Sequence record: SRR31156797_2095
Length of the DNA: 64,000 nucleotides
Reading direction: 5' to 3' (one strand)
Shown piece by piece: positions 11,951 through 33,773 of the stretch; within the stretch, counting starts at the first letter, position 1, and every line of letters begins with the position of its first letter. The notes below the pieces were generated by a model. The model did not search any database. It was not told where the DNA came from and saw only the letters and a program-made list of their open reading frames with translations. The translations under genes were made by a program, and so were the position numbers.

Positions 11951-12068
11951 CCATCTTAATTATTCCATATTTCCAAATCTATCAAATCTTTACGGGGACA
12001 TATTAGTTGTTGACATATGTTTAATTTGTTTTAGTATTTCACTATAAATTATTATTTTGAGGTCAGAA

Positions 12069-12574: not shown

Positions 12575-13681
12575 CTAATCCACAGGTATACCAAACCTTT
12601 TAGCCACTTCATCCTTATCCACATCAAAGCCTAGCTCGATAGCATCCTTGATAACGTCCCACTCCGCTTCCGCTTTCACATCGAGAACAAACGCCGGAAC
12701 CCTTACATCAGAAAAGTTAAGCTCCACAATCCACTTAACAAGCGTCCTGCTGACTGTCTCAGCGAGTGCCTTTGCTACCTTATCACTCTTAACCTGAAGT
12801 GTCTCAAGGTGCTGTTTAGCTAATGAATAGGATCCATTGCTTGATGTGTCGCTGGTAAGGATTTCGCCCGTGATAGCCTTTGATATCTCGCTGTTGCATA
12901 TGTTTACCAGCTCAGAAAAGTCCTGTGATGTCCCTTTGGTTTCAAGAACCTGCACACTATCCACATTGGCGAGAGCCACCGCAGCATCTGACTGGATATT
13001 ATATAGATTATCAGCAAGTTCCTTCGCACGCTCCCTGCTGTCTGCATCATCGATGGAGTCAAAAAGCGCAAGAACAGTAGGCACGCCGTACTTCTCAGCC
13101 ACAGTAAGCCAGTAGCGAAAACCAGCCTTCTTAAACATCCAGGGCCAGTAACACTTTGAAAGAACTGGTGTACCATATGGATTTTCATTCTTAGGGCTGT
13201 TTCTATGAACTATGAATTTATACTCTTCATCAAGGGGGAGTGTCGCTACGCCATCAGCCAGAGCAAGCCCGCCGTCAGATTTAAAGCTGAACCTGTCCGG
13301 TCTGCGCCCTAGTGCCTGCTGTGGAAGCCAGACACCATCCTTCTCTTCCCAAACTATCTCAACCACGCTGAAACCATACTCCACAGCCATCATCATATCC
13401 TGAAGGAGCTGCTTAACCCCGATGCTCGACAAACAGCTTTTAACAAATGATGCTGTCCCTGCGGATTCTTCATCATTATCAGCAGGTCGAACGTCCCACT
13501 GCATACCAAACACCCTGTCTTTAAGCTGTTCCAGCTTTGCGTAGATGTGAGCATCCTGAAGCATCTCTTCGAAAATGCCCATATTCGCCCCTGTCTTACC
13601 GAAGAGCACATCCGGGTTGCTCATAGTTCCAAAAGTTGAGATATCACTGTTTTTAGTCAAAACACTTGTTAGTCTGCTCAT
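12575..13681 (-). CDS. Phage portal protein, Mu gp29/DUF935 family (short, 368 aa)
   Basis: FEEMLQDAHI, AVEYGFSVVEIVW, NPYGTPVLSKCYWPWMFK...W....EKYGVP, EISKAITGEILT, GSYSLAKQH are all hallmarks of DUF935. Confidence 0.9.
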   Translation of the reverse strand: MSRLTSVLTKNSDISTFGTMSNPDVLFGKTGANMGIFEEMLQDAHIYAKLEQLKDRVFGMQWDVRPADNDEESAGTASFVKSCLSSIGVKQLLQDMMMAVEYGFSVVEIVWEEKDGVWLPQQALGRRPDRFSFKSDGGLALADGVATLPLDEEYKFIVHRNSPKNENPYGTPVLSKCYWPWMFKKAGFRYWLTVAEKYGVPTVLALFDSIDDADSRERAKELADNLYNIQSDAAVALANVDSVQVLETKGTSQDFSELVNICNSEISKAITGEILTSDTSSNGSYSLAKQHLETLQVKSDKVAKALAETVSRTLVKWIVELNFSDVRVPAFVLDVKAEAEWDVIKDAIELGFDVDKDEVAKRFGIPVD

Positions 13682-13690
13682 ATATTTCTC

Positions 13691-15088
13691 CTAATATTTT
13701 TTGAATATCGAACCTGTCTGCCTGCTCGCACCTGAGAAAGATGCCGACGGTCGTACACGCTTCTCTGTCTGGCTGAGAGCCTGCGTCATAGCGTCCACCA
13801 TGTCGTCATTCTTTCCTGATGGAAAAAGTGCTGCCTCATCAATAAGTTCATTACTGAAAGAAGCTCGCTTAAGATAAACATTTCCAGCCTCAAGCATCGG
13901 CGTAATAGCTATCGCCCGTGAGACCTTGCTCCCTTTCGGGTTAACAGGGATAAGCCCCTGAATCTCGCTCTTAAGTGCAGAAATCACCGCTGGGCCGTTC
14001 GCCTTATCTTCGATATATTTCGCCTTCGCCTCCGGATACTTCTCTGTCATTTGCCGTATAGCCCTAACCGCCCCCATAAAGTCCATCCTGTTACGCACCT
14101 GATCTATGAGGTAGCGTTCTGCTCCTTTAACACCCCAAACCTGACCGACCACATAATCTGAGCCGTCACCGCCCGAAAATGTGAGATCCCAAGACTGAAT
14201 TAACTGCTCCATCTGTGGAAGTTGATCGTAATACTTAAACCATGATTTCTTGAAAACTGAGCCGTCATCCGGTGCAGGTCTCTGCTGATAAAGGGCGTTC
14301 CAAACACGTGTCCCGACTGCCGCTTTCATCTTCTCGAGTTCAAATAGATCATACTTCTCCTCCCAGAGCGGGTCGCCAATATCTCTGAATTCCTCCTTCT
14401 CTTCCGCAATAGCGGGGAAGCTGACAACATCCCATTTATCCGTTCCAGAACTCAATAATCTTCCGGCAAGGTCGTCCTCGTGCCATCTTGTAAGGATGAC
14501 AACAATCCGCCCACCCTTCTCTATGCGGGTGTATAAGGTTGACTGATACCAGTCCCACACTTTATCTCGATAGTTCTTAGAGTCTGCGTCCTCCTGATTT
14601 TTGAAAGGGTCATCTATGATCAGAAGATCACCGCCCATACCTGTTATCGAACCGCCCACACCAGCGGCTACATATCCACCACCGCATGTTGTCTCCCACC
14701 TGTCGGCAGCCTTTGACCTCGGGCTTAACCCTGTATCGAAAACAAGGTTAAACTTAGGGTCTGCGACTATATCACGCACCTTTCGACCGAAATTCTCCGC
14801 CAGTCTTGCGCTATATGACGTAGCTATCACCCTGCTCTCAGGATTACGCCCTAGAAACCATGCAGGAAACCGGACGGATGCAAGCTCACTCTTACCATGC
14901 CTCGGCGGCATTAGAACCATCAGCCTGCCCGACGTTCCAGCCTCAAGCTCCATCAGTTTTTCAGATAGAACTCTGTGATGCCAGTTCGGCTTATAGCTCC
15001 TGAAGGTCAGTTTAGAAAAAGGTATGAGCCCTTCCCTCGCAAGCCTTAGCGCATAAAGTTTTTTTAGGTGGTGATTACTCAGCTTCAT
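13691..15088 (-). CDS. Phage terminase large subunit (Terminase_6 type, psiM2 ORF9-like C-terminus)
   Basis: Walker A MPPRHGKSE, Walker B LLIIDDP, TRWHEDDLAG, ALYQQRP, nuclease acidic residues QSWD / DYVV / DDMVDAMTQAL intact. Confidence 0.93.
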   Translation of the reverse strand: MKLSNHHLKKLYALRLAREGLIPFSKLTFRSYKPNWHHRVLSEKLMELEAGTSGRLMVLMPPRHGKSELASVRFPAWFLGRNPESRVIATSYSARLAENFGRKVRDIVADPKFNLVFDTGLSPRSKAADRWETTCGGGYVAAGVGGSITGMGGDLLIIDDPFKNQEDADSKNYRDKVWDWYQSTLYTRIEKGGRIVVILTRWHEDDLAGRLLSSGTDKWDVVSFPAIAEEKEEFRDIGDPLWEEKYDLFELEKMKAAVGTRVWNALYQQRPAPDDGSVFKKSWFKYYDQLPQMEQLIQSWDLTFSGGDGSDYVVGQVWGVKGAERYLIDQVRNRMDFMGAVRAIRQMTEKYPEAKAKYIEDKANGPAVISALKSEIQGLIPVNPKGSKVSRAIAITPMLEAGNVYLKRASFSNELIDEAALFPSGKNDDMVDAMTQALSQTEKRVRPSASFSGASRQTGSIFKKY

Positions 15089-15527
15089 AAAGGATCGATT
15101 CGATATCCTCCTGACTTAGATTTTCAAGCTCAGCCTGAAACTCAGCTATGGCAGGAGAGGTTCCAATCTCTTCCCGCAAAAGCTCATCAGGGGATTTACC
15201 TATGCATATATCTTTGTAGTTTTTTACTGTTTTAGAATGAAGCTCCACATCTCTCAGGCAGTCGCACTCAAGTAAGAGAACGTCAGCCTTTTTAAGTCCC
15301 TCCATTGTGCTGTTACAAATAGCCTCTAATAACTGCACCCTGTGGTTCTTAAGTTTTCGCACTGTCCTGTCAGAATCAGGACGTTTCCACTTTTCAGAAT
15401 TCGCACGTTTCTTCACGGTATCTAGCTTCAGCTCCCACGAAACAGCCAGCTCGCCAAGGTCGTATAGCCCCTCCTCGTAATCTTTCCGCATTAAGAGCCA
15501 GACATCTTTTGTTATTCTGCCCATCAT
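15075..15527 (-). CDS. Putative terminase small subunit
   Basis: 150 aa, N-terminal HTH-like segment (W..MRKDYEEG...ELAVSW....DTVKKRANSEKW), overlaps the terL start, SD GGAGAGG. Confidence 0.65.
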   Translation of the reverse strand: MMGRITKDVWLLMRKDYEEGLYDLGELAVSWELKLDTVKKRANSEKWKRPDSDRTVRKLKNHRVQLLEAICNSTMEGLKKADVLLLECDCLRDVELHSKTVKNYKDICIGKSPDELLREEIGTSPAIAEFQAELENLSQEDIESILYEAE

Positions 15528-15542: not shown

Positions 15543-15580
15543 TGAGGATTGTACGTAGATTTTGCGATCAATATGTTTAA
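15543..15580 (-). promoter_or_regulatory. Putative promoter of the packaging operon (shared motif, copy 1)
   Basis: Minus strand TTAAACATAT-TGATCGCAAAATCTAC-GTACAATCCTCA. TACAAT is -10-like. Palindrome ATGTTTAAACAT at 15573-15584. Confidence 0.6.
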
Positions 15581-15685
15581 ACATGATAGGGTTAGAAATA
15601 TGACCTACTGATTTCTAATACTTCCGTTTTCAAAAACAACGATCTGGTTTATACTGAATAAAGAGACATGGAGTGAGTAGAGATT

Positions 15686-16774
15686 ATGATAAGAAAAGTT
15701 ATTACGGATGTTTATGAAGATGTCCATTTCAGCGATAAATACGACGGAGAGCAAATCGGGCTCCTTATTAGAGAGCTTGATGTCCGACACGCCCATTTTA
15801 CTAATCTGCCTATAGTGCCGGAAGTCCGTGATTTCTTAAAAGGTGAGCTTCTCATAAGCTCAGTATTTTCAACATCAGCAATAGGTAAACCTGATATCGA
15901 GGAACAGGATGTGAGAGCTTTTCTCGCTGGCGGCGACCACGAGCTTGATAACACCAAGGCGAGAATTGTAAACAATATCCGTCGTACATTCGAGTTTGTA
16001 GAGAAAAATAGTAAAAACTTTGAGATGAACCCTGAAAACATGCGAAAGCTGCACATAATGCTCACCATAGACACCGGAGAGGGGCTTCCAGGTGTTTACC
16101 GTACTAAAGACAGGAGCGAGGTCAACCTTGACTATGCACCGCCTAGAGGTTCAATGGACGAACTCAGCAAAGAATTTTGCAGTTGGTTCAACAGTAAAGA
16201 TATGGAGAAACACCACCCAGTTGTACGTGCCTTCCTCGCCCACTATCACATAGGTATGCTCCAGCCTTTCACAAACGGTAACGGACGTGTCGCCCGTATG
16301 GTTGAGGCTATCATGTTAGAAAAAGCCGGAATGCCGTACATCACACACGTTCTGTCGCAATACTATCGCAGAAACCGTAAGGATTACATAAAAGCGTATA
16401 TTAAAAATGAAAAGACAGGCGGATTCGACATGACACCTTTCCTCGCATTCTGCCTTGAGGGTGCTGTTAGAGCTTATAAACTCACCACTGATATGGCTGT
16501 TACCGGACTTCGTGCGATCAGTGTGCGGGAATACATACGCAGGCTCCGTACGCTTAAAAAAGTTACTGAAAGACAGAAGGATCTGCTGGAGATCATTTAT
16601 CAGTATGATAAACCTTTCGACCTGAACGAACTTCTTACAAATCCTATATTTGCTGGGCTATACAAGAGTGTTACCGAAAACACTGCGAGAAACGACATTA
16701 AAAGATTAAAAGAGCTGAACCTAATTAAAACATCTGACAACAGCTACACATTCAATAGATTTGTACTGGGGTGA
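15686..16774 (+). CDS. Fic-domain protein (His->Gln motif) with C-terminal winged HTH
   Basis: PGVYRT flap, motif LQPFTNGNGRVAR, C-terminal VTENTARNDIKRLKELNLI. Confidence 0.85.
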   Translation: MIRKVITDVYEDVHFSDKYDGEQIGLLIRELDVRHAHFTNLPIVPEVRDFLKGELLISSVFSTSAIGKPDIEEQDVRAFLAGGDHELDNTKARIVNNIRRTFEFVEKNSKNFEMNPENMRKLHIMLTIDTGEGLPGVYRTKDRSEVNLDYAPPRGSMDELSKEFCSWFNSKDMEKHHPVVRAFLAHYHIGMLQPFTNGNGRVARMVEAIMLEKAGMPYITHVLSQYYRRNRKDYIKAYIKNEKTGGFDMTPFLAFCLEGAVRAYKLTTDMAVTGLRAISVREYIRRLRTLKKVTERQKDLLEIIYQYDKPFDLNELLTNPIFAGLYKSVTENTARNDIKRLKELNLIKTSDNSYTFNRFVLG

Positions 16775-16777
16775 TAA

Positions 16778-17665
16778 ATGTTTTTGTGTTTTGATATCGG
16801 CGGAACAAACATTAAATCCTGTGTTACAAACAGTGATGCGGATTGCCTCGACAAGCTCTCTCTGCCGACCCCTAACACTTATGAAGATATCTTAAGCCTC
16901 CTTGTGTCTGCTGCTGAGCGTTCTGGAGATTTTGAAGCCTGTACAGTAGCCGTACCTGGGACTTGTTCACCGAGGTCAGGAGAGATACTCTTCTGCCCTA
17001 ACCTCACCTGTCTGAACGGGCAAAATATCAAAAAAGACCTGCAAGCCAGAATCAATAAACCTGTTTACATAGAAAATGATGCAAATCTCGCCGCTCTTGG
17101 TGAATACCACTATGTCGAAAAAGAGGATATTGAGAACATGATATTCATCACCATCGGAACAGGGCTCGGCGGAGGAGCTGTACTCAACGGCGAACTGCTA
17201 ACGTCCGACATATCCCTGTTTGAGGCGGGGCACATAAACATAGACCCGGATGGGCGCACATGCGGATGCGGTAAAAGAGGATGCCTCGAAACTTATTGTA
17301 GTATAAACGGAATAATCAAGACCTACCATAAGCTTTCAAGCGAGAATAGAGCTGAGAACGTTAACGATATATATAACGCAATGAAGCGCGGCGACAAGGC
17401 TGCCACTCTCACTTTCGAAGTTTTCGGAGGAAACCTCGGCATAGGCTTGGCGACACTTGCTAACATACTTGTACCGCAAAAGATAAAGATAGGCGGCGGG
17501 ATATCTGAGATGTCTGACGCTTTCCTCTCTCACACAATAAAAATATTCGGAAAACATATCTATCCTGCCTATAAAAACAGAATATCCATCGAACTTTCCA
17601 CACTTAAAAACAGAGCCGGCTTATCAGGATGTACCGCTTACGCTATGCATAACCTGAAAAAGTAA
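16778..17665 (+). CDS. ROK family sugar kinase (glucokinase-like)
   Basis: FDIGGTNIK, IENDANLAALGE, GTGLGGG, EAGH, CGCGKRGCLE. Confidence 0.92.
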   Translation: MFLCFDIGGTNIKSCVTNSDADCLDKLSLPTPNTYEDILSLLVSAAERSGDFEACTVAVPGTCSPRSGEILFCPNLTCLNGQNIKKDLQARINKPVYIENDANLAALGEYHYVEKEDIENMIFITIGTGLGGGAVLNGELLTSDISLFEAGHINIDPDGRTCGCGKRGCLETYCSINGIIKTYHKLSSENRAENVNDIYNAMKRGDKAATLTFEVFGGNLGIGLATLANILVPQKIKIGGGISEMSDAFLSHTIKIFGKHIYPAYKNRISIELSTLKNRAGLSGCTAYAMHNLKK

Positions 17666-17760
17666 CAATCTCTTAGCTATTCGCCTAATGATATCCGACC
17701 GATACGCTATAAGCTGATAATTACACTTGTTTTTTTTCTCTAATATGAAATATTACTGAC

Positions 17761-18573
17761 ATGGAAAACAATATCATCACAGGCATCACACCTACCAAAT
17801 GCCTTAACTGGGTATATAGAAAAAACACTGAAAAACCAGTTTACCCACCCGCTGTAGCTGACGTTGATGGCGAATATTATCAGATAAACCTGTTCGAAGT
17901 TTACTCACAGAAATACTTTGTAGCTGAAGCTGATAGCATAGAAGACGCTATCAATATGTCTGTAAACCTCTATGGTATAACATCTTTAAATACTGTTGAG
18001 CTGGCTTATCTCACTGCTGTGTGTGAAAAAGTAGGCGCAGATACATCAAAGATTGAAGCTTTTGATCACTTTAAAATGAAAGGTAAGAAGAATTTCGAAA
18101 CTTTGAGAGCTATCACATACTTCTGTCCTGTTTTACAGAAATATCTCTCGATTAAGACTATCCCACTTAAAACCATTGCAGTTTTTGACAAACTCGAAAA
18201 AGAGTTCAGGCGTTTTGTAAAGAATACTGTTGATGATAAAGAGCTTTCTGTTCAGGATTTTCGCAAGATGGTAAACCTGCTTTTCGATATGCAGTCTCAG
18301 GCAACTCAGGATGATATGGGACCTGACCTTCTATCTAAGCTATCTGAAAAGAAAGATATTACAAGGCTGAGTTTCATGAAAGAGATGCAGAACCTCACAA
18401 AAGGGGTAAGCATTAATATCAATTCCGACAATAATTTCGAAACTGGTGAGCTCACTTTCAGCTTTAAAGCTTCGAGCATGAACGACGTTGAAAAGATCAT
18501 TGAAAGCGTGGGAAAAGACAGAGAAAAAATAAATAAAATTTATAGGTTTTTGGATGAGCAGGATATTTGTTGA
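17761..18573 (+). CDS. Hypothetical protein translationally coupled to the SPL-like gene
   Basis: 270-aa ORF overlapping the next gene. No confident family. Confidence 0.7.
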   Translation: MENNIITGITPTKCLNWVYRKNTEKPVYPPAVADVDGEYYQINLFEVYSQKYFVAEADSIEDAINMSVNLYGITSLNTVELAYLTAVCEKVGADTSKIEAFDHFKMKGKKNFETLRAITYFCPVLQKYLSIKTIPLKTIAVFDKLEKEFRRFVKNTVDDKELSVQDFRKMVNLLFDMQSQATQDDMGPDLLSKLSEKKDITRLSFMKEMQNLTKGVSININSDNNFETGELTFSFKASSMNDVEKIIESVGKDREKINKIYRFLDEQDIC

Positions 18574-19600
18574 TAAAGACTCAGCGGACAGCTGGGCGGC
18601 TACTCATGCCATGAAAACCTGTACTGACATAGAGTTCGTAGATAAGGGCGCTGTGATTCCTGACGACAAAAATATCATCCACATCACATCCGGTCCGAAT
18701 AGCTTTGTGCATCGATGCCCAGCGACAAAAATTTACCGCTGCTGTGATTATTACGTTGCCGATGTGGCGGAAGGCTGTCCATTCGACTGCACCTACTGTA
18801 TACTTCAATCATATTTAAACCACGAGCACATAAAGGTTTACTCTGATTTCGAAGGCGTAAAGAACGATATTCTGGACATGCCGAAAGATCGTTTTTTCAG
18901 ACTTGGAACTGGGGAACTCTCAGATAGTTTGGCGATTGACCATATCATAAACTTCAGCGGATACATCGCCGAAACAGTTAATAAGGCAGATAACCTTCTA
19001 TTTGAATTCAAAACAAAATCAGCAAATATAAAAAACCTGCTTAACATAAACCCGAAAAACATGATGGTCTCATGGAGTTTGAATCCGAAAGAGATTATTG
19101 AACAGGAAGAGCACGGCGCAGCGTCACTTGACAACAGGCTGAAAGCGGCAAAAATCTGCGCTGAATACGGGTATAAAATTGGATTTCACTTCGACCCCCT
19201 CATATATTATAAGGACTTTGAAAAGGGTTATGCTGAGGTTATCAAAAAGATGACTGAGGCTGTGCCTGAAAGCTCTATTGAATATATAAGTGTTTCAACT
19301 TTCCGTTTTATACCAGAGCTTTTAGACATCGTTCGAGGCAAGTTTGACCGGTCATTACTCCTTCAGAGCGAGTATGTAAAGACCCTCGACGGCAAGATGC
19401 GTTATTTTAAGCCGCTCCGTGTACAGATGCTCGATTTCTTTGTGAAAGAGGTTCGTAAGCACTGGAGTGATGCCTTTATATACTTCTGTATGGAGCACGA
19501 ATCTGTCTGGAAAAAGATCATGAAATATGATCCCGGTGAGCGTGAAGATTTTGAAATGTTTTTCCCTTGTCAGGCAGAAAAGAGCAATATTGAAGCCTAA
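18554..19600 (+). CDS. Spore photoproduct lyase (SplB)-like radical SAM protein
   Basis: GCPFDCTYCILQ (CxxxCxxC), GTGELSDSLA, FEFKTKS, SWSLNP, GFHFDP, DGKMRYF, YFCME. Confidence 0.85.
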   Translation: MSRIFVDKDSADSWAATHAMKTCTDIEFVDKGAVIPDDKNIIHITSGPNSFVHRCPATKIYRCCDYYVADVAEGCPFDCTYCILQSYLNHEHIKVYSDFEGVKNDILDMPKDRFFRLGTGELSDSLAIDHIINFSGYIAETVNKADNLLFEFKTKSANIKNLLNINPKNMMVSWSLNPKEIIEQEEHGAASLDNRLKAAKICAEYGYKIGFHFDPLIYYKDFEKGYAEVIKKMTEAVPESSIEYISVSTFRFIPELLDIVRGKFDRSLLLQSEYVKTLDGKMRYFKPLRVQMLDFFVKEVRKHWSDAFIYFCMEHESVWKKIMKYDPGEREDFEMFFPCQAEKSNIEA

Positions 19601-19665
19601 GTAATATTTCCCCTTTTATTAAGTGCGGATTCTGCTTATAATATGCCCGTTTCTATGGAGGATTC

Positions 19666-20850
19666 ATGGGTTTTTTCAGCATATTTAAAAAGAAGAAAGA
19701 AGAGGAAGTCGAAACCGAAGAACTGGTGGAAACTTCTGATGAAATAGAAGAAGAACAATCTGGTGAAGGTGAGGAGCAGGTAGTAACCGGGCAAGAACCT
19801 GAATCTGGCACAGATGAACCTGAGCCGGAGCAGATAGAAGAACCGAAAGATACGGAAGAAGAAATAGAGGCTGAAGTCGAAGCTGTAAAGCAAGACTACG
19901 CCGAAAAACCTGCTGTTAAACAGGGTTTTCTTTCAAGGCTCAAAAAAGGTCTTTCCAAGACATCCGGAAAGCTTGTGGGCGGTATGGAGTCTATCTTTAC
20001 CGGGCGCAAAGAGATCGACGAGGAACTTCTCGAAGAACTTGAAGAACTTTTCATCACTTCTGATGTTGGTGTTAACACCACGATGAAGATCATAGATTCT
20101 GTCCGTGACGAGCTCTCACGCAAAGCTCTGAAAAACCCTGAAGAACTAAAAGCCAGCCTCAAAAAGCACATTCTGGAGATTTTAAATATACCTAACGACC
20201 TTAACACTACTGAGGATAAACCATATGTAATTATGGTTCTCGGTGTTAATGGTGCAGGGAAAACCACAAGCATAGCTAAAATGGCGAAACGCTTTAAAGA
20301 GCAGGGGCTTTCGACTTGTCTCGCAGCGGGGGACACCTTCCGTGCGGCAGCTATCGACCAGCTCTGCGTATGGGCTGACAGAGTGGATGTGCCTGTTGTA
20401 AAGCAGTCAGAAGGTTCAGACAGTGCTGCTGTAATATTTGACGCTATACAGTCATGCAAATCGAAAGGTGTGGACGTGCTCATAGCTGATACAGCCGGAA
20501 GACTTCAGAATAAACTTAATCTAATGAAAGAGCTCGAAAAGATAACCAGAATCTGCAAAAGAGAACTCCCTGATGCGCCACATGAGGTGCTTCTTGTTCT
20601 TGATGCTACAAGCGGGCAAAATGCTCTCACACAAGCACAGAAGTTTAATGAGGATATAGGTTTGACCGGACTTGTACTTACTAAGCTTGACGGTACAGCA
20701 AAAGGCGGAGCGATAATCGGCATTGTAGACGAGCTCAAAATACCTGTTAAATTTATAGGTTTTGGCGAAGGTATTGATGACATGAAACCTTTCAGCGCAG
20801 AAGATTTTGTAAATGCGCTATTCGAAAATGAATCAGAGACGGAGAGTTAA
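19666..20850 (+). CDS. ftsY: Signal recognition particle receptor FtsY
   Basis: Acidic N-domain, GVNGAGKTT, DTFRAAA, DTAGR, TKLDGTAKGG. Confidence 0.97.
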   Translation: MGFFSIFKKKKEEEVETEELVETSDEIEEEQSGEGEEQVVTGQEPESGTDEPEPEQIEEPKDTEEEIEAEVEAVKQDYAEKPAVKQGFLSRLKKGLSKTSGKLVGGMESIFTGRKEIDEELLEELEELFITSDVGVNTTMKIIDSVRDELSRKALKNPEELKASLKKHILEILNIPNDLNTTEDKPYVIMVLGVNGAGKTTSIAKMAKRFKEQGLSTCLAAGDTFRAAAIDQLCVWADRVDVPVVKQSEGSDSAAVIFDAIQSCKSKGVDVLIADTAGRLQNKLNLMKELEKITRICKRELPDAPHEVLLVLDATSGQNALTQAQKFNEDIGLTGLVLTKLDGTAKGGAIIGIVDELKIPVKFIGFGEGIDDMKPFSAEDFVNALFENESETES

Positions 20851-20857
20851 TATATTG

Positions 20858-21199
20858 ATGCGTTACATTTATTTAATACTAATGGCGATAGCAATATTCG
20901 CTCCTGCTGTCGGGCATACAGAAGAAAACATCAGAGGTATATTTTTCGAAAATAAGTCGCCTCATATGTTAGGTGTGAGGCTAATAAATAGAAACAGCAG
21001 AGTCGAAGATCATTTTATTTTTGACGCAAACAGCAAAGAACATGTAGACACAAAAATAAACTCATTTACGCTAAGCGCTCAACTGATAACATCCAGCTTT
21101 CCTATCGACTGCTGTGAATGGACTAGAGTTTCCAGCGGCGACACAGTGGTAATTGAGTATATCGAAAAACGTAACCGCTGCTGGTGCAAAGTAAAATAA
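20858..21199 (+). CDS. Small exported hypothetical protein (Cys-containing)
   Basis: Signal-peptide-like MRYIYLILMAIAIFAPAVG, CC and CWC motifs. Start reassigned to ATG 20858. Confidence 0.55.
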   Translation: MRYIYLILMAIAIFAPAVGHTEENIRGIFFENKSPHMLGVRLINRNSRVEDHFIFDANSKEHVDTKINSFTLSAQLITSSFPIDCCEWTRVSSGDTVVIEYIEKRNRCWCKVK

Positions 21200-21451
21200 T
21201 CAGTCTATATTCATACAACTTCTCTCCTGTAGGAATTCCTCTAAGCTCTGCTTAGGAACCCTCCAACGCCCGTTACCATCGATACTCGTATTCCATGCAA
21301 TCAGCTTAGCACTTTTGATCCATCTACGTACTGTGATGTGACTAACCTGTAGAATTTTGGCTACCTGATAAATCGTTAAATTACTACCAGGCATACTTTC
21401 TACTTGCTTACTAATACTTTCTTCGTTCCACACTTTACATGGAGCAGCCAT
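21200..21451 (-). CDS. Excisionase-like/MerR-type HTH (HTH_17) DNA-binding protein, candidate activator or Cro-equivalent of the phage-derived system
   Basis: LTIYQVAKILQVSHITVRRWIKSAKL...GRWRVPKQSLEEFL. Perfect SD AAGGAGG before ATG 21451. Confidence 0.82.
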   Translation of the reverse strand: MAAPCKVWNEESISKQVESMPGSNLTIYQVAKILQVSHITVRRWIKSAKLIAWNTSIDGNGRWRVPKQSLEEFLQERSCMNID

Positions 21452-21487
21452 ACTTACCTCCTTGGACTTAACCAATGTGTAACTTAA

Positions 21488-21551
21488 TACACAATATGAA
21501 TGTATATTTCAACACATATTTTCTGTTTGTTTTTAACAGAATATATCTGTA
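21488..21551. promoter_or_regulatory. Three 17-bp operator-like inverted repeats between divergent regulators
   Basis: TACACAATATGAATGTA (21488-21504), AACACATATTTTCTGTT (21511-21527), AACAGAATATATCTGTA (21535-21551), with spacers of 6 and 7 bp. Confidence 0.7.
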
Positions 21552-21561
21552 TATAATAGAA

Positions 21562-21921
21562 ATGACTATTGGCCAAAGAATCAAAGAATTAAGAAAAGAA
21601 CTTAAAATCAGCCAGAAGGAACTGGGTAATCTTTTGAATGTTGCTCAGCAGGTTGTAAGCTATTATGAAAATGGTGATACTATTGATGCATCAAAACTCG
21701 CCATCATCTCAGAAAGATACAATATCGATATAAGATACTTCTTTGAACATAAACCGTTATGCAGATACCAGACAACTTACCTCGACTCGGCACATCATAA
21801 CGACCTCACAGTGCCAGTAGGGTGGACTGATCTTTTAGATAACATTAATCAGTTAGATTTAGAAAAGATAAAAATAATAGAGTGTGTCCTGAAAGCTTTA
21901 TTGCTTGAATTCAAAAAATAA
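21562..21921 (+). CDS. XRE-family (CI-like) HTH repressor, probably leaderless
   Basis: MTIGQRIKELRKELKISQKELGNLLNVAQQVVSYYENG. No SD, and TATAAT lies just upstream (21552-21557). Confidence 0.85.
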   Translation: MTIGQRIKELRKELKISQKELGNLLNVAQQVVSYYENGDTIDASKLAIISERYNIDIRYFFEHKPLCRYQTTYLDSAHHNDLTVPVGWTDLLDNINQLDLEKIKIIECVLKALLLEFKK

Positions 21922-22109
21922 GCACCCTCGTCATAATTGACACTTCCACCATTATAAATACTTATACAGGGCAGTCAGGTATCCAATGCATTAATAAGTT
22001 ATTTTTATAGCGAATTGTTCTAATTTTAATCAGTTCCTACTGAAACTCTTATCACTATTTAAGAAATATATATAAAACAGTTGTGGACATTTTCGGGACA
22101 CTACATTTT

Positions 22110-22276
22110 TGTGGAAAAACTGTGGAAAAAAAACACTGTAATAAGCCCCGATATTAATAATTTATAAAAATAAGTCCTCTTTCCTATATCTATTAACGAG
22201 TTACCAGCGAACCCTTTAAACACTGACTTACAATTGTCAAGCACTTTTTTTTCAACATAATTTGGGAAAACCTGTT
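22110..22276. promoter_or_regulatory. DnaA-box/IHF-like intergenic element, copy A
   Basis: Tandem TGTGGAAAA (DnaA-box variants) at 22110 and 22121, IHF-like TATTAACGAGTTA at 22191, and a TGTCAAG...CTGTT block at 22235. Confidence 0.5.
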
Positions 22277-22359
22277 AACAAACAGACCAAAAAACCCGCA
22301 GAATCACACCTTTAGCAAGTGTGATCAAAAAATAATCAATAAAAAAACATCAAAAAAAC

Positions 22360-23319
22360 TTACCAAACTCTAACTGGGCTCTCTGCTTCATAATTTTTTA
22401 TATCAAACCTGAAGTCTTCCTTCTGAACAAGATCCTCTGTGAGCCTTACTCCTTCCTCGAGTGTCTTAACCGCCATTTTGAAATTTCCTGTCTCAGCATA
22501 GGCGGCAGCCAACACCTCTATATACTCAATATCTTCATTAATTTCAAAGAGCTCTTTTGCAAGCTTAAGCGCTTTCGCACCGTTACGATATGTATCAAGA
22601 GGGTTAGTAGCATATATCCACGCCAGCATTCTTTTCGCATCCACATTAAACTTATTTATAGTCAGCGCCTTCTCAAGGTCAGAAATTGCCTGATGCGTAT
22701 CTTTCGCTTTATAAAACACTCTTGCACGAAGATAGTAGAGCTCGGCATTCATATCATCTTTGATTATAGCCTTCTGAATGTACGTTTTCGCCTGCTCATA
22801 CTTCCCCATTTTGAAATACAGCTCCCCCATCGCTACATCAAACTCGACACTGTCTCCGCCACGTTTTTCAGCTTTCTTAAGATCTTTCATCGCACGCTTA
22901 TAATCACCCTTACCGACAAATGCCATAGCACGTTCCAGGTATGCAATAGGCATTCTCGAACCTTTCGTTTCGATAACATTAGTAAAGTCGATGATAGCAT
23001 CACGATAAATATGAAGCTTCATGTATGCCCGCCCACGCTTAAGATTATACTCTACCTTGCCGCTGTTACGCAGTGCCCTTGTATAGTCATTTACCGCCTC
23101 TACATAATGACCGTAGCCAAAGTGTATATCAGCCAGTGCGGAGTAATATGTGTGTGAATGGATTAAAGTTTTGTTCGCCTTAGTAAAACTCTCTACAGCT
23201 TCTTTATGTGTAGCTGCCTTCATAGCTTGCTTCGCAGATATAGTGTGTGTAGCACTATTCTCTTTTGCACAACCAGCCAAAACAAAAATTATCGATAAAA
23301 TAAAAATAAAACTTCTCAT
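22360..23319 (-). CDS. TPR-repeat lipoprotein
   Basis: Lipobox VLAGC after MRSFIFILSIIF, multiple TPRs, LAWIYATNP...RNGAKALKLA...LAAAYAETGNF. Start reassigned to 23319 (SD GAGGTG). Confidence 0.85.
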   Translation of the reverse strand: MRSFIFILSIIFVLAGCAKENSATHTISAKQAMKAATHKEAVESFTKANKTLIHSHTYYSALADIHFGYGHYVEAVNDYTRALRNSGKVEYNLKRGRAYMKLHIYRDAIIDFTNVIETKGSRMPIAYLERAMAFVGKGDYKRAMKDLKKAEKRGGDSVEFDVAMGELYFKMGKYEQAKTYIQKAIIKDDMNAELYYLRARVFYKAKDTHQAISDLEKALTINKFNVDAKRMLAWIYATNPLDTYRNGAKALKLAKELFEINEDIEYIEVLAAAYAETGNFKMAVKTLEEGVRLTEDLVQKEDFRFDIKNYEAESPVRVW

Positions 23320-23404
23320 GTTTAACACCTCAGAAAACGCATATCTATATGACAACCATAACTCTTATTAGTTCTCATTGGAAGAGTAATCTAGCCTCTC
23401 ACAC

Positions 23405-23453
23405 TTAAACGGCATTAAACATATCCACATATCGCATAGAGTATTATCCCTCA
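23405..23453 (+). promoter_or_regulatory. Putative promoter of the head/tail operon (shared motif, copy 2)
   Basis: TTAAACATAT(23415)-CCACATATCGCATAGA-GTATTATCCCTCA, plus an extra TTAAAC 10 bp upstream (23405). Confidence 0.6.
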
Positions 23454-23477: not shown

Positions 23478-24173
23478 ATGAAACTGGAGCTGGCAAAAGC
23501 CGGAAACCACAACGACATCCTTATATCAGAAAAGGACATCCGTGATATGGCGGAAAACTTCGAAAGTGATGTACCTGTCACCATAGGTCACGAAATGGAT
23601 GACTCCATGCCTGCTTACGGATGGATCAAATCTGTTCAGGTATCCGCAGATGGAAAGACTCTAGTCGGCGAAATAGAGCTGGGGGAAGAGCTTGAAAATG
23701 CTATCACAGAAGGGAAATATAAAAACTGGAGCATAGGCGCAGGAAGAGATGCAGAAGGGAAGATGTACCTCCATCATCTCGCATTCCTCGGTGCAGTGCC
23801 CCCAATGATCAAAGACCTCCAGATTGTTGAGTTCAGTGATTATTCAAATGTTATCACCTTCACAATGGAGAATACACGTGCAGACCTCACACTCTCAGAT
23901 ATGCGCCTTGCAGAGCTTAAAAACCTGCGCAAAGAGAAGCGTAAAACAATGCTCACCCAGCTCTCTGACGTCACAGCGGGCAAGCTCCCTTTTGGTAAAA
24001 GAGAGGAGCTGATCAAATTTGCGGATTCTCAGCTCGCTGGCGAGAGGGAAAACATAGTAGAGATGCTCACAAGCATATTCGAATCAGTAAAACACCCAGT
24101 AAGACAAGGACTTTCCGAGTCGATCACAACAGCAAGAAAGGCGGAGATGCAAAGCATCTTCTCCAAAATCTAG
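23478..24173 (+). CDS. Phage prohead protease/scaffold (Mu gpI-like)
   Basis: PVTIGH, PAYGWI, GKYKNWS, LHHLAFLGAVPPMIKDL, then a helical scaffold-like tail. First gene of the head operon, SD AGGAGG. Confidence 0.8.
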   Translation: MKLELAKAGNHNDILISEKDIRDMAENFESDVPVTIGHEMDDSMPAYGWIKSVQVSADGKTLVGEIELGEELENAITEGKYKNWSIGAGRDAEGKMYLHHLAFLGAVPPMIKDLQIVEFSDYSNVITFTMENTRADLTLSDMRLAELKNLRKEKRKTMLTQLSDVTAGKLPFGKREELIKFADSQLAGERENIVEMLTSIFESVKHPVRQGLSESITTARKAEMQSIFSKI

Positions 24174-24182
24174 GAGGAATAA

Positions 24183-24545
24183 ATGGCTACAGTTAATGGA
24201 GTTATAGGTCAGCAGACCATCACAGACAAATCTGTCATAGACGACAGACACCCAGCCGTAATCCGCATGAAAAAGTTCAAAGCGGACAACGGCATCATCC
24301 CTTCCGGCGAAATAGTTGCGATAGATGCCAGCGGCGACATCGTATCCTACGACCCGGCATCCGGCACATCTGAAAACACACCTGTGGGCGTGTGCGCTAT
24401 TGAGACAGACACAGCAAAAGACACAATCGGCAACGTGATCGTACACGGTGCAGTTGTAAAGGCGAGCCTTCTCACACTCGGCGTCGCATCCGTCACAGCA
24501 GAAATTGAAGCTCTCGAAGCAAACACAATCATCTGGGCATTCTAG
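24183..24545 (+). CDS. Head decoration protein (lambda gpD-like)
   Basis: 120 aa between protease and capsid, G.IVA...YDPASGTSENTPVGV....DT....GNVIVHG.V pattern. Confidence 0.7.
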   Translation: MATVNGVIGQQTITDKSVIDDRHPAVIRMKKFKADNGIIPSGEIVAIDASGDIVSYDPASGTSENTPVGVCAIETDTAKDTIGNVIVHGAVVKASLLTLGVASVTAEIEALEANTIIWAF

Positions 24546-24557
24546 GAGGACTTTTAA

Positions 24558-25541
24558 ATGTTTCAACTCGATCTTAGCAGATACTTTACAACAGACTCTA
24601 TCATCAAAGCTCTCACCGCCATGCCTGAGCTTAAATCACCTGTAATGGACACTATTTACACAGAGGACAAGCGTAAAAACCACCCTCTTCCGACTGTTTC
24701 CGTAACAGACCTTCAGCAGGCAGTCAAAAACATCGCAATAACAAAAAGGGGCGGCGAACCTGTTCCTGTTTATGAAGATGCGATGAACATAACACACATC
24801 GAACCTCAACCTTTCAGACCTTCTGAGAGACTGAGCGGTGTAAGTGTAAACAACCTTAAGCTTCTTGATGACACTGGCGTTGAGCTACTTGTAAATAACA
24901 AGATAGACAGGCTCCGCCGAATCGTCAGAGCTTCCACTGAGGCTATGGCTGCCCAGTCGCTTAAAGGTTCCATAGCATACCCTATGGCTATGGACGGCGG
25001 TTTCGGAACCTACAGCGTAGATTTCGGTACTACACTCTCACACACAGTGGGAACAGCCTGGGGCGATGCAGGCATCACAATGGATGCTATCCTGGCTGAC
25101 CTCATCTCTATGGAAGCTTCTATCCAGTCAGAAACTCATTACGGTTCTGACATAAGATTCTGGGCTGGTCAGGACGCTTTCATGGCTCTTGCTAAAATTG
25201 TTCAGGATATAAATAACGCATCAATTTCCGGCGTTATCGACTCGAAAACAATCAACATAGCAGGCTTCAAAGTTGAGCTTATGAACAGTTCATACTCCGA
25301 CCTCGCAACTGGCTCACAGGTAAAAGTTATTGATACGGATAAGGTTATGGCATTCGCCGCTGATGCGCCTTTCGAGATGGTCTACACTGTTATCGACGAC
25401 CTCGACAGCAACCTCACAGCTATGCCTTTCTTCGTAAAACACGTAAAAGACCCGAGATCCTCGACAATCGAGATCATCGCAGAAAGCAAACCACTCCCTG
25501 TTCCTTATACAAAGGGAATCTGCTGGGCGACAGCTCTGTAG
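24558..25541 (+). CDS. Major capsid protein (lambda gpE / Phage_cap_E-like, HK97 fold)
   Basis: 327 aa, RASTEAMAAQSLKGSI, VDFG, C-terminal DPRSSTIEIIAESKPLPVP. Follows the decoration gene, SD AGGAGG. Confidence 0.85.
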   Translation: MFQLDLSRYFTTDSIIKALTAMPELKSPVMDTIYTEDKRKNHPLPTVSVTDLQQAVKNIAITKRGGEPVPVYEDAMNITHIEPQPFRPSERLSGVSVNNLKLLDDTGVELLVNNKIDRLRRIVRASTEAMAAQSLKGSIAYPMAMDGGFGTYSVDFGTTLSHTVGTAWGDAGITMDAILADLISMEASIQSETHYGSDIRFWAGQDAFMALAKIVQDINNASISGVIDSKTINIAGFKVELMNSSYSDLATGSQVKVIDTDKVMAFAADAPFEMVYTVIDDLDSNLTAMPFFVKHVKDPRSSTIEIIAESKPLPVPYTKGICWATAL

Positions 25542-25562
25542 AGCATACAACTCCCTCACAAT

Positions 25563-25587
25563 CGGGGCGCATTTTCTGTGCGCTCCG
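25563..25587 (+). other. GC-rich RNA hairpin after the capsid gene (mRNA stabiliser or attenuator, no U-tract)
   Basis: CGGGGCGCA-TTTTCTG-TGCGCTCCG. Confidence 0.55.
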
Positions 25588-25613
25588 GTAAATAAACAAG
25601 AAGAGGTTAGGAT

Positions 25614-25970
25614 ATGCTGATAGACATTTTTGAAATTCAGGAAATGATTCTCGCCGAAGATTACGATGCGATATGCCGTGGCGACGACTCAATCACAGAA
25701 GAGTCGATCGAATCAGCAAGGGCTTATGTCGCTCTTGTCGCAGAGAAATTCGGCATAGATTACGACGAGGACGACCCCGCACTCAGGCTGGCAGTAAAGA
25801 AATGGGCACTGGCACAGATGTATATATTCGCTGCGGAGTGGGAAACAGCAAAACAGTACAAAGACGAATGTAATGAGGTTCTATCACCACTCGCCCCTGC
25901 AAAAGAAACAAGCGGTAAGGTATTCTCAGCAAGTACAGGCGGCAGCTCTGAGTGGAAGGGGTATAGCTAA
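25614..25970 (+). CDS. Head-tail adaptor (Mu gp36/DUF1320-like)
   Basis: 118 aa directly after the capsid gene, helical I..A...V...P.LR......A...Y...YK pattern. Confidence 0.6.
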   Translation: MLIDIFEIQEMILAEDYDAICRGDDSITEESIESARAYVALVAEKFGIDYDEDDPALRLAVKKWALAQMYIFAAEWETAKQYKDECNEVLSPLAPAKETSGKVFSASTGGSSEWKGYS

Positions 25971-26341
25971 TGTTCTCCCCTCAGGAAATCAAGCAGAAGC
26001 TTGTCACAGCACTTGATAGCTCCGGTGTTTTCGACTCTGTGCTCACACCGCCAGACGACAGAAAAAACTCTGTGATCATGAACGAGCCGTCAGCCGCTGT
26101 TTACTATACAGGATGTAGTTTATCAGACGACAACAATGTACAGTTTATAAATGTAAACTACTCTGTCTATATGAAATTTCTGAAAACAGGGATAAACGAA
26201 ACAGTGGACGACATCACCCTTGCGATAGATGCTGTCAAAGCTCTCGAGCCGATTTCACTTAAACAATCGAAAGTCTCAGAAGGGAATAAAAGCCACAGCA
26301 TATACCTGCTGGATGTCTCTTTTAACGGGTGCTCAGTATGA
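25970..26341 (+). CDS. Putative neck/tail-completion protein
   Basis: 123 aa, TAATG coupling to the adaptor gene, P.AAVYY motif and position. Confidence 0.45.
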   Translation: MFSPQEIKQKLVTALDSSGVFDSVLTPPDDRKNSVIMNEPSAAVYYTGCSLSDDNNVQFINVNYSVYMKFLKTGINETVDDITLAIDAVKALEPISLKQSKVSEGNKSHSIYLLDVSFNGCSV

Positions 26342-26706
26342 TCAGCATCGCAGGGATAACCCTGCCGGAAACAGCGATATGGGAAAATGAGATAGCTCAT
26401 GGTCAGCCTAAATCGAGTGCAGAGCAGACAACTGACGGCAAAGAATTAATTTTCCATTGGGATATAGACTGCGACATAGATATCTACATCCCGAAGATAG
26501 CAGGAGAGCTAAGCAGAGCAACCGTAGACAGCATTAAGGCTCTCTCTGATTCAGGTCATCTTGTCGCACTGGACATCAACGGACAACTTATAAACGCAGT
26601 TTTCAGATACCAGGATACGGCTCTCGAGCTAAAACCTATAAATGCAAAACAACAGCAGTCTGAAGCTGACAGCTATTACGGATATATAAGGCTTTTGGAG
26701 GTATAA
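26338..26706 (+). CDS. Putative distal tail (Dit-like) protein of siphophage type
   Basis: I.IAGITLP....WENE...EQTTDG...LSRATVDSIKAL...VFRYQD.ALE..PI...YIRLLEV resembles a small siphophage tail-tip protein. ATGA overlap. Confidence 0.5.
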   Translation: MISIAGITLPETAIWENEIAHGQPKSSAEQTTDGKELIFHWDIDCDIDIYIPKIAGELSRATVDSIKALSDSGHLVALDINGQLINAVFRYQDTALELKPINAKQQQSEADSYYGYIRLLEV

Positions 26707-27675
26707 ATGAATCAGACAGACATAAAAATCATCAAACCTGAAAACATCATAGACGGAGATGCAAACGGCGGTCGAGCAGACTTCGCTACTGAGGTAATCT
26801 CGGGAATTAAGTTTAACTTATTACCCAGAGTTACATCATCAGAGAGAGATAGCGGAGTAACCAGATACCGTAAAGCATTTATCGCTAATGCAAATCAGCT
26901 CGGTGAAACAGCTTACGGTGCATCAGTTGGCATCAGCTCTCCAGGCAACGGAGAGGACAGATTTTATATCAAAGCGGGCACAGATAGTGACACTCAAGCG
27001 GAGCAAATCTCTTCCGGCTGGACCGGCTGTGGAACCCTCGCTGTAAATGCAACAGCAGGTGAGACATCAATTCAGGTAGTATTTAAGTCAAATGATTTTG
27101 AAATTAATGAAGATGTGCTCCTCATAATAAAGGATAACCTCGGAAATTCCTGCAATGTAAGAACATCTTCAACTGCTCCGTGTGCATCGTGGACAGGAAA
27201 TATAGCCGCAGTCGAACTAGCCGCACAACTACCTGATAATTTTACAGCTTTTAATACTAACGTAGGCATCATGCTCGAAGCGGGCGACCTTAAACCTTCG
27301 CTTACAGGTATGGCTGTCTCTAGTGTTGAAGGCGGATTCGACGAAACAGCTATGGCGCTCTATAACAGAGGGACAGAAGCGGATACATTTTCGCTCACAT
27401 TCGAAAGCTCATTCAGCTATCTGGCATCCGGTATAGAGGCTGGGACGCTCAGCTCCGGAACAACGGGTTCAGCCTTTGAGCCTATCAATCCTAAAACGAA
27501 CGTTCCTTACTTCTCAATACCTGCGGCTTGCTGGTCAGGAATCTTTGAGGCTGGCAATACTGTCACCTTTTCAACTAACCCAGCCTGCAAGGCTTTCTGG
27601 ATAAAGGAAGTTGTCCCTGCCGGATGCGCACATGAGCCGAACAACAGCTTTGACCTCGATTGGATGATAGATTAA
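26707..27675 (+). CDS. Virion tail-tip structural protein
   Basis: N-terminus TDIKIIKPE.I.D...NGGR....V.SG..FNLLP.V...ER..G...YRKAF resembles siphophage tail proteins. Confidence 0.55.
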   Translation: MNQTDIKIIKPENIIDGDANGGRADFATEVISGIKFNLLPRVTSSERDSGVTRYRKAFIANANQLGETAYGASVGISSPGNGEDRFYIKAGTDSDTQAEQISSGWTGCGTLAVNATAGETSIQVVFKSNDFEINEDVLLIIKDNLGNSCNVRTSSTAPCASWTGNIAAVELAAQLPDNFTAFNTNVGIMLEAGDLKPSLTGMAVSSVEGGFDETAMALYNRGTEADTFSLTFESSFSYLASGIEAGTLSSGTTGSAFEPINPKTNVPYFSIPAACWSGIFEAGNTVTFSTNPACKAFWIKEVVPAGCAHEPNNSFDLDWMID

Positions 27676-27685
27676 TAGGTGATAA

Positions 27686-28876: not shown

Positions 28877-28877
28877 C

Positions 28878-30518: not shown

Positions 30519-30520
30519 TT

Positions 30521-31018
30521 ATGGCAAAGGTAACAGTTAGTTTCGTCACAAATGATGAGGAAGGAAAGCTCATAATCGAAAATGATGATGAGAGAAACAG
30601 AGACTATACAGGAAAAACAAAAACAAAATTCAGGTATGGGGATACAGCATATTTCAGAGTGTACAGCCACGAACCGGATAAAGTAACAGCCATAACAACA
30701 GACGGTCAGCTCTACGATAATGGATTCTTCACTGACAGCATAGAGGAAGAGGTTGCAACTTTTATAACAGAAAGAGAAGCAGAACCGGAAAAACCCGTTA
30801 AAACGCTGACATCCTATAAGTGGCTCGGAAATGAACTCGGAGAGATAAGTGTAACAGCACCCTACTCTCTTTCTGCATCGGAAAAACCCACTGCTGACAA
30901 GATTGCAGCTGCCTATATCAATTATCAGACAAGCTACAAACTATTCGGACTTAAGCTAGACATACGTGAAGACGAAGAGTATCCGGTAATGGTTTATGTG
31001 AGAAGCGGAAATGTCTGA
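30521..31018 (+). CDS. Phage-derived structural hypothetical protein
   Basis: 165 aa, coupled within the operon, SD GGAGG. Confidence 0.55.
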   Translation: MAKVTVSFVTNDEEGKLIIENDDERNRDYTGKTKTKFRYGDTAYFRVYSHEPDKVTAITTDGQLYDNGFFTDSIEEEVATFITEREAEPEKPVKTLTSYKWLGNELGEISVTAPYSLSASEKPTADKIAAAYINYQTSYKLFGLKLDIREDEEYPVMVYVRSGNV

Positions 31019-33761: not shown

Positions 33762-33773
33762 ATGGAGAAAAAT

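Follow-up and report, generated by a model that had tools for sequence, protein, structure and literature searches.

A proposed direct-repeat promoter element shared by the dispersed operons of a putative gene-transfer-agent-like system in Deferribacterota

A stretch of DNA of 64,000 nt from sequence record SRR31156797_2095, which is called the window below and always means the stretch at its full length, carries packaging genes and head/tail genes of one phage-like set in two divergent operons that lie about 8 kb apart with ftsY in between (Table 1). We describe here a sequence motif of fixed spacing that stands upstream of both operons and, in related genomes, also upstream of a third operon encoding a phage lysozyme. 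The gene set is, as far as can be judged from sequence, the genomic signature of a gene transfer agent (GTA)-like system. We propose that the motif copies are the core of one dedicated, activator-dependent type of promoter, which would drive the three operons of this GTA-like regulon and would be switched by a small protein with a helix-turn-helix domain of the HTH_17 family; the probability of this reading is, in our estimate, roughly 0.55.

Each copy of the motif starts with the 10-mer TTAAACATAT, from which a 16-nt spacer leads to a second, -10-like half. On the minus strand, upstream of the terS-like gene, the 10-mer at 15580-15571 is paired with GTACAATCCTCA at 15554-15543, and the start codon (ATG) of the terS-like gene lies downstream at 15527. 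On the plus strand, upstream of the protease gene, the 10-mer at 23415-23424 is paired with GTATTATCCCTCA at 23441-23453, and the ATG of the protease gene lies downstream at 23478. Both copies had been recognized in an initial annotation of this DNA, and re-inspection of the sequence confirmed their positions and reading. When both strands of the window were scanned for the composite pattern TTAAACATAT-N16-GTAYWATCC with up to three mismatches, just two matches were obtained, at 15546-15580 (minus) and 23415-23449 (plus), where 0.06 were expected; none of 100 shuffles of the window gave two or more. These two copies precede the terS-terL-portal and the protease-decoration-capsid-tail operons, respectively, and about 8 kb of cellular genes separate them. 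The 10-mer by itself is common, with 11 matches at one mismatch or fewer against 7.3 expected (11 of 100 shuffles reach 11), and a third exact copy at 12015-12024 (minus) is without the downstream half and faces no gene.

A canonical -35 element had been reported as missing from both sites, and indeed neither of them was picked in a scan for the sigma-70 consensus (at least 9 of 12 matches, spacer of 16-18), which did pick the divergent Fic promoter at 15627-15655. What stands at the -35 position is ACATAT and thus not TTGACA-like; the -10 half of the consensus, TAnnnT, was found in all of the 35 homologous sites introduced below. The second TTAAAC that had been noticed 10 bp upstream of the head-operon copy is present at 23405-23410. 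As for the hexamer ATCGCA, said to be common to the spacers, it does occur in the two copies of the window but in none of the others among the 35 homologous sites and is therefore not a conserved part of the element.

The comparison set consisted of 68 genomes of Deferribacterota, and the relatives of the window therein include Denitrovibrio and metagenome-assembled genomes of Deferribacterales. A close homologue of the major capsid protein was found in 16 of the 68 genomes, which fall into clade 1 (four genomes; capsid identity to the window of 83-88 %), clade 2 (seven genomes; 76-79 %) and clade 3 (five genomes; 61-62 %). In clades 1 and 2, the motif is kept with its fixed spacing at both operons in 12 of 12 genomes, the window included. 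Together with the lysozyme promoters, these genomes provide 35 sites, namely 12 of terS, 12 of the protease and 11 of the lysozyme, from the window and 11 relatives. Every site has a variant of the 10-mer; 24 have it exactly, and the variants are TTAATCATAT, TTACACATAT, TTATACATAT, TTAAACATTT, TTCATCATAT and CTAATCATAT. Of the 35 sites, 31 have TAnnnT at a distance of 17 nt from the 10-mer and four at 18 nt, and TAnnnT is mostly followed by CC or TC. The spacers are not conserved across the 35 sites, and the flanks diverge as well.

Upstream of the 10-mer, the repeat first noticed at the head operon turned out to be a general feature. All 35 sites have a cytosine at position -5 from the 10-mer, and the match to a TTAAWC-like hexamer peaks exactly 10 bp upstream (mean of 4.0 out of 6 positions against about 2.1 at other offsets). 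The information content amounts to 2.0 bits at this cytosine and to 1.4-2.0 bits within the 10-mer, with 0.9 bits or less at all other positions upstream of the 10-mer and in the spacer. In two genomes, furthermore, the protease promoter has two nearly full 10-mers in tandem. As read from these alignments, the element is composed of two direct repeats placed one helical turn (10 bp) apart, a 17-nt spacer, TAnnnT and CC; at the terS and protease genes, 17-41 nt then lead from the hexamer to the ATG.

Genome-wide scans, which were made in the genomes of the relatives and not in that of the window, placed the motif almost exclusively at three operons. The exact pattern had 11 matches in G001-G003, and six of them are terS or protease sites, one belongs to the lysozyme (G002:C12) and four are unexplained, having neither an extended match nor a start codon nearby; the reversed control gave one match. 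The five matches beyond terS and the protease had been considered as chance, which was dropped for G002:C12 upon its recognition as the lysozyme promoter. Of the two degenerate patterns, each scanned in five genomes, TTAHACATAT-N16/17-KTANNAT gave 10 matches (nine terS or protease sites and one lysozyme site; reversed control, 0), and TTAWWCATWT-N17/18-TANNATYC gave 10 matches, all at the three operons (control, 2). The concern raised at the outset that the motif might be common upstream of unrelated genes is thus not borne out, with 10 of 10 matches at the three operons in both degenerate scans. The initial annotation had also expected further copies to mark lysis and tail modules. This was right for lysis: the third operon encodes a phage lysozyme (Pfam PF00959), a homologue of which is preceded by the motif in 11 of 11 clade-1 and clade-2 relatives; in a genome that consists of a single contig, 1.17 Mb separate this operon from the structural genes. 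It was not right for the tail, the genes of which share one operon with the head genes. One DNA run compared with the lysozyme locus of G001 at 80 % likeness gave no match.

In clade 3, both the terS and the protease promoters have the same altered version of the element, in which a core TAACAA/GAACAT stands 19 nt before TATATT; therefore, the cis-element has changed in step at both operons. The AACA within this core keeps the distance to the hexamer that is seen in clades 1 and 2, and the nine sites that come from four of the five genomes also have a hexamer containing ACAC, about 10 bp upstream of the core. A clade-3 locus considered as a lysis cassette (L131) was rejected, as it is a lone small open reading frame (ORF) for a membrane protein.

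The candidate for a protein that recognizes the repeats is encoded between the two operons of the window. This 83-aa protein scores 48.2 bits for HTH_17 (PF12728), for which the cut-off is 27 (E 1.3e-12), and a strong homologue (E <=4e-21) occurs in exactly those 16 of the 68 genomes that bear the phage-like element; 11 other genomes have weak HTH_17 matches alone, at 32-39 % identity. Compared with the window protein, the homologues of clade 1 have 87-95 % identity, those of clade 2 have 72-80 % and those of clade 3 have 47-50 %. All 12 sequences of clades 1 and 2 have the same predicted recognition helix, VSHITVRRWIK; in clade 3, the clade with the changed motif, it reads VNPLTVKRWIW in five of five sequences, with five positions changed. 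In an AF2 model (predicted local distance difference test score, pLDDT, of 78), the best compact fold matches are Pukovnik Xis (4j2n; TM score by target of 0.81, root-mean-square deviation of 1.6) and BldC (6ama; 0.76 and 1.8), followed by RacA and a P2 DNA-binding protein. The protein may thus be a winged helix of the Xis/BldC/Cox type (PDB 4j2n, 6ama/6amk, 4lhf), the initial annotation having named Xis/BldC-like HTH proteins as binders of such phased repeats; unlike those proteins, it has an extra conserved N-terminal helix (residues 10-19), and the Foldseek E-values are weak, at 0.02-0.03. No match to the PrtN or AlpA families was found in Pfam at E <=0.1. Proteins such as Xis, BldC and Cox line up head to tail on phased direct repeats, which would agree with the 10-bp phase of the two repeats here. 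The HTH_17 protein is the most likely candidate for a binder and activator of the repeats, and a role in excision is implausible for an element in which no integrase was found.

Divergent from the HTH_17 gene is a gene for a cI/Cro-type HTH_3 protein. The architecture of the intergenic region between them (window 21452-21561; L082-L097) is kept in 17 of 17 genomes and contains palindromes, and the HTH_17 gene is preceded by a canonical sigma-70 promoter, TTGAAA-17-TATTAA, which shows that ordinary promoters are in use in this lineage. Judged by this arrangement, the pair resembles a switch. In the 16 relatives, a palindrome is placed between the -10 hexamer and the ribosome-binding site, its half-site differing in clade 3; the sequence of the window itself differs at this spot.

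A possible course of events can be drawn from these features. A signal would flip the HTH_3/HTH_17 switch, in which the HTH_17 protein would be controlled by its divergent HTH_3 neighbour; the HTH_17 protein would then bind the two repeats head to tail at the three promoters and, in the fashion of a class-II-type activator, replace the missing -35 contact, so that the packaging, head/tail and lysis genes would be transcribed together. Class II promoters and the late promoters of Mu, which depend on Mor and C, have a good -10 element, no -35 element and an activator site over the -35 region. The sites described here are alike in having a good -10 and no -35, and their geometry would fit if the hexamer occupied -12 to -7, in which case the repeats would fall at about -49 to -30. 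They differ in having direct repeats where Mu C recognizes a dyad, and no protein of the Mor/C family was found. We take the sites to be promoters that probably need an activator.

Some of the same features could be explained by a dedicated sigma factor. The 10-mer might be the -35 element of an alternative sigma or of a late factor resembling sigma, encoded elsewhere, and the part of the HTH_17 protein would then be another one, for instance that of a repressor or of an excisionase relic. Indeed, with exactly 17 nt between them and the -10 hexamer, the last six bases of the 10-mer are where a -35 element normally stands, the CC after the -10 is conserved, and the core AAC is reminiscent of -35 elements of the extracytoplasmic function (ECF) type. 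We nonetheless consider this explanation unlikely. The second repeat, with its cytosine invariant in 35 of 35 sites and its 10-bp phase, suits an oligomerizing DNA-binding protein and not region 4 of a sigma factor; the -10 is sigma-70-like (TAnnnT); and no sigma gene adjoins any of the modules examined, although a co-occurring sigma gene was not searched for genome-wide.

The repeats could also be an operator, at which a repressor (either HTH_3 or HTH_17) would silence three weak sigma-70 promoters until induction. Their overlap with the -35 region, a frequent position of operators, would agree with this, as would the resemblance of the divergent HTH_3/HTH_17 pair to a phage immunity switch. 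However, promoters with no recognizable -35 hexamer would be very weak if unaided, and direct repeats are ill-suited to a dimeric cI-type HTH_3 protein, which is usually a binder of palindromes; palindromes are located in the switch region between the HTH_17 and HTH_3 genes and not at the motif promoters. Repression as the role of the repeats is thus decidedly improbable.

We give even less credit to the idea that RNA polymerase takes up a processive antiterminator at the element, in the style of lambda Q, P. aeruginosa AlpA or GafZ of the Caulobacter GTA, for read-through of the long operons and of the lysozyme leader. Known regulators of GTA and lysis cassettes are described as acting in this way (PMC11150451, PMC9371919), and the lysozyme leader has a conserved GC-rich hairpin before the ribosome-binding site in 10 of 11 genomes. 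The AlpA and GafZ elements are, nonetheless, placed between -35 and -10 in the same accounts (PMC9371919, PMC11150451), whereas the repeats here are at and upstream of -35; AlpA is described as having eight helices with residues past 140 (PMC9371919) against the winged helix of 83 aa here; the leaders of terS and the protease, 17-41 nt in length, are too short for a pause site and a terminator; and the hairpin in the lysozyme leader has no T-run.

The relatives also bear on the question of whether the phage-derived genes have been kept as one system. All of the 16 genomes with the capsid gene have terL. For the chromosomal SMC protein, the identity to that of the window is 81-83 % in clade 1, 65-68 % in clade 2 and 47-49 % in clade 3, in parallel with the capsid. 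Every genome looked at has the same host genes on the flanks, and the gene order of clade 1 is that of the window. In clade 2, a break lies between the ROK gene and the gene for the 270-aa protein, and the modules are on separate contigs in seven of seven genomes: one contig has SMC through portal-terL-terS followed by Fic-ROK, and the other has the 270-aa gene, SPL, FtsY, HTH_17 through TPR, protease through tail and glnB-amtB. In clade 3, the two modules are on the same strand and 30-37 kb apart in four of five genomes. The ratio of nonsynonymous to synonymous substitution rates (dN/dS), determined for five structural genes with eight pairs of genomes, is 0.017-0.144 wherever dS < 1; of the 40 comparisons, two are saturated and one, involving a terL gene with an internal stop, has a value of 0.28. 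With identity tiers that track SMC, conserved flanks and dN/dS far below 1, the phage-derived set shows the pattern of a domesticated, vertically inherited element under purifying selection and not that of a mobile prophage. The early argument for one maintained system has thereby gained ground, in that 16 of 68 genomes have the same gene set with host-like divergence and such low dN/dS.

Chromosomal and vertically inherited genes for head, packaging and tail, as expected of a GTA, are accordingly present in 16 of the 68 genomes, and the three dispersed loci, with no integration or replication domains among the ORFs scanned, are what an element incapable of self-transfer would have. The scan against Pfam covered 60 ORFs of the window up to about 54 kb and gave no gene for an integrase, a transposase or replication. 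Among 50,697 phage records, none matches the capsid protein; its single match in IMG/VR is a contig of 15.9 kb, filed as viral, on which the head/tail module of a clade-1-like genome is found together with the TPR gene. An ordinary Mu-like prophage, mobile or recently decayed and with late promoters repeated by chance, would account for the Mu-type portal and protease, the lambda-type capsid and decoration protein and the viral filing of that metagenome contig, but it would be expected to combine portal, protease and transposase in a contiguous genome and is extremely improbable in view of the constant chromosomal neighbours, the modules split by FtsY and other cellular genes and further parted in clades 2 and 3, the divergence tracking SMC, the low dN/dS, the lack of integrase, transposase and replication genes among the ORFs scanned and the capsid with no match among the phage records.

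Several points weigh against the proposal of an HTH_17-switched, GTA-like regulon. The 35 sites come from related genomes and hence are not independent. The covariation of regulator and motif corresponds to one lineage split, a single evolutionary event that could be coincidence, and any gene of the element would give the same phylogenetic profile as the HTH_17 gene. With the HTH_17 model, Foldseek found no match in the PDB at E <=0.001, and a sequence search of the PDB gave non-significant matches alone, with BldC the best at E 0.23. A lysozyme homologue is absent from the 64 kb of the window. In clade 3, a motif-bearing lysis operon was not found, and the query used detected a lysozyme homologue in one of the five genomes; delineating the clade-3 regulon by the pattern KRACAW-N19/20-TATAWTYC was given up as too loose, with 24 matches (nine of them the terS and protease sites) against 14 in the control. 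The terL gene of G002 (L006) has one internal stop, TGA. The tail genes belong to no named family in Pfam, PHROGs or NCBIfam, their atlas neighbours being unnamed viral clusters, and it is therefore not certain that a complete particle is encoded. It remains a tentative proposition, to which we would give somewhat less than even odds, that a group of Deferribacterota maintains a functional GTA that is encoded in up to three places of the chromosome and fired by a re-used activator of the Xis/BldC type, which would replace the -35 element under the control of a cI/Cro-like switch; particle production may then be supposed.

Among known systems, the GTA of Rhodobacter capsulatus (RcGTA) is described as a multilocus "genome" of phage-derived head, tail and lysis genes that are co-expressed (PMC5026251). 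The present set is similar in having phage-derived genes over several chromosomal loci and in being inherited with the host. The two differ in that the structural genes are unrelated in sequence, being here of the Mu type for the portal and of the lambda gpE/gpD type for the capsid, in that the packaging genes are here split from the head genes, and in the phylum. The regulator of RcGTA is GafA, as against the 83-aa HTH_17 candidate here. In the GTA of Caulobacter crescentus (CcGTA), which is under the control of GafY and GafZ, an element in the promoters of particle genes is reported to recruit a specific regulator with accessory genes being coordinated, and the GafZ element is given as a palindrome between -35 and -10, with GafZ acting by anti-termination (PMC11150451). 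Here, by contrast, the element is a pair of direct repeats that covers the -35 position and the DNA upstream of it, and all three operons have this one element.

The pyocins of Pseudomonas offer another parallel. In the PrtR/PrtN P-box regulon, the gene of a small activator stands beside that of a cI-type repressor, and PrtN activates scattered phage-derived clusters as well as lysis genes via a shared repeated promoter motif. A small HTH gene beside a cI-type gene and a shared repeated promoter motif are also found here; the present set differs in its capsid and terminase genes, which have no counterpart in pyocins, these being either tails or soluble toxins. The system thus belongs to none of RcGTA, CcGTA and the pyocin regulon by sequence, and the structural genes, the fold of the regulator, the position of the element and its direct repeats are all different.

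In the titles and abstracts (supplements aside) of the literature on gene transfer agents in Deferribacteres/Geovibrio and on Denitrovibrio prophages, no description of this system was found, and no GTA is known to have been described from the phylum Deferribacterota. To our knowledge, gene transfer agents are proven in just a handful of lineages, and the coordination of scattered GTA genes is understood for just two alphaproteobacterial systems. The locus offers a clear cis-element, a regulon of three operons and a single strong candidate for the regulator in a new phylum, with an excisionase-type fold possibly serving as an activator of late genes. It also allows the split of one ancestral phage operon, and the further movement of its parts by rearrangement with no loss of the presumed co-regulation, to be traced through three clades. 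The relatives belong to Denitrovibrio and allied Deferribacterales, and in a cultured one the system would be approachable by experiment.

Table 1. Positions of the genes and of the motif parts in the window
Feature	Position	Strand	Remarks
Packaging operon	12575..15527	-	terS-like gene (150 aa), 15075-15527; large terminase, 13691-15088; Mu-type portal, 12575-13681
Upstream degenerate repeat of the putative terS promoter, CCTATC	15585..15590	-	Ends in the invariant C at 15585, i.e., -5 from the 10-mer
Proximal 10-mer TTAAACATAT of the putative terS (packaging) promoter	15571..15580	-	Kept in 12/12 clade-1/-2 terS sites: 10 exact, 2 TTATACATAT
-10-like hexamer TACAAT	15548..15553	-	17 nt past the 10-mer; followed by CC
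Intervening cellular genes	15686..21199	+	Fic, ROK, 270-aa unknown, SPL-like radical SAM, FtsY, 128-aa unknown (Pfam); order kept in relatives
HTH_17 protein (83 aa), candidate activator	21200..21451	-	PF12728
HTH_3 (cI/Cro-type) protein (119 aa)	21562..21921	+	PF01381, E 6e-13; divergent from the HTH_17 gene
TPR lipoprotein-like gene	22360..23355	-	TPR by Pfam; always divergent from the protease gene; position kept in the representatives compared from each of the three clades
Upstream repeat TTAAAC of the putative head-operon promoter	23405..23410	+	Invariant C at 23410
Proximal 10-mer TTAAACATAT of the putative head/tail promoter	23415..23424	+	12/12 clade-1/-2 protease sites: 10 exact, 2 TTACACATAT
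-10-like hexamer TATTAT	23442..23447	+	17 nt past the 10-mer; followed by CC
Head/tail operon	23478..34664	+	Protease/scaffold, gpD-like decoration protein, gpE-type major capsid and 11 more phage-like genes; Pfam and PHROGs

In the packaging operon, the terminase is assigned by Terminase_6N/6C and the portal by Portal_Mu (PF06074, E 4e-89), and the label terS is given by position alone, as the protein matches no family. In the head/tail operon, the match of the protease to the Mu-type protease is weak, the 11 distal genes are phage-like members of unnamed families with the last one tail-fibre-like, and the AF2 model of a 322-aa protein has a pLDDT of 41.7. The left part of the window has, in order, mraW, mraZ, a chemoreceptor gene, MazG, Fic, FapA, a PAS protein, SMC and rhodanese before the packaging genes. 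To the right of the head/tail operon (ending at 34664) are glnB, amtB and further cellular genes; the ORFs scanned at 39.5-54.2 kb are also cellular, and the ORF of 2713 aa is located at the right end (55290-63431).

The lysozyme leader in the relatives (L060-L070) was found to be structured. About 80-118 nt lead from the -10 hexamer to the ATG, an outer stem ATGAAGA ... TCTTCAT that encloses hairpins is conserved, and the last hairpin, which is GC-rich, ends right before the ribosome-binding site in 10 of 11 genomes; the leader in G037 has 27 nt and no hairpin. No match was found in Rfam at E <=0.1, and RNAalifold on a MAFFT alignment, in which two rows were misaligned, recovered the 3' hairpin alone. 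No T-run follows this hairpin, and the predicted structure might serve in attenuation or else hold back lysis at the level of translation.

Besides the terL gene of G002, the SMC gene of G003 has one internal stop, TAA; the two stops could be either assembly errors or decay. Two Fic-domain genes, at 5136-6218 and 15686-16774, are about 10 kb apart in the window, and when they were compared with their counterparts in G026 and G035, cross-matches had just 24-28 % identity. The second of them is divergent from terS and adjoins it in clades 1 and 2.

Two further features were noted around the TPR gene. Between this gene and the motif, the block CTCTTATTAGTTCTCATTGGAAGAGTAA at 23362-23390 is conserved in the alignment of clade 1 and could be the promoter of the TPR gene or another binding site. 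On the other side, the region from the HTH_3 gene to the TPR gene (21922-22359) holds only non-coding DNA of about 440 bp in the window, and the corresponding gaps in the three nearest relatives hold different large ORFs, namely of 631 aa (L001, 5666-7561), of 478 and 216 aa (L002, 5386-7554) and of 715 aa (L003, 5401-7548). This gap is a variable insertion spot within an otherwise conserved locus.

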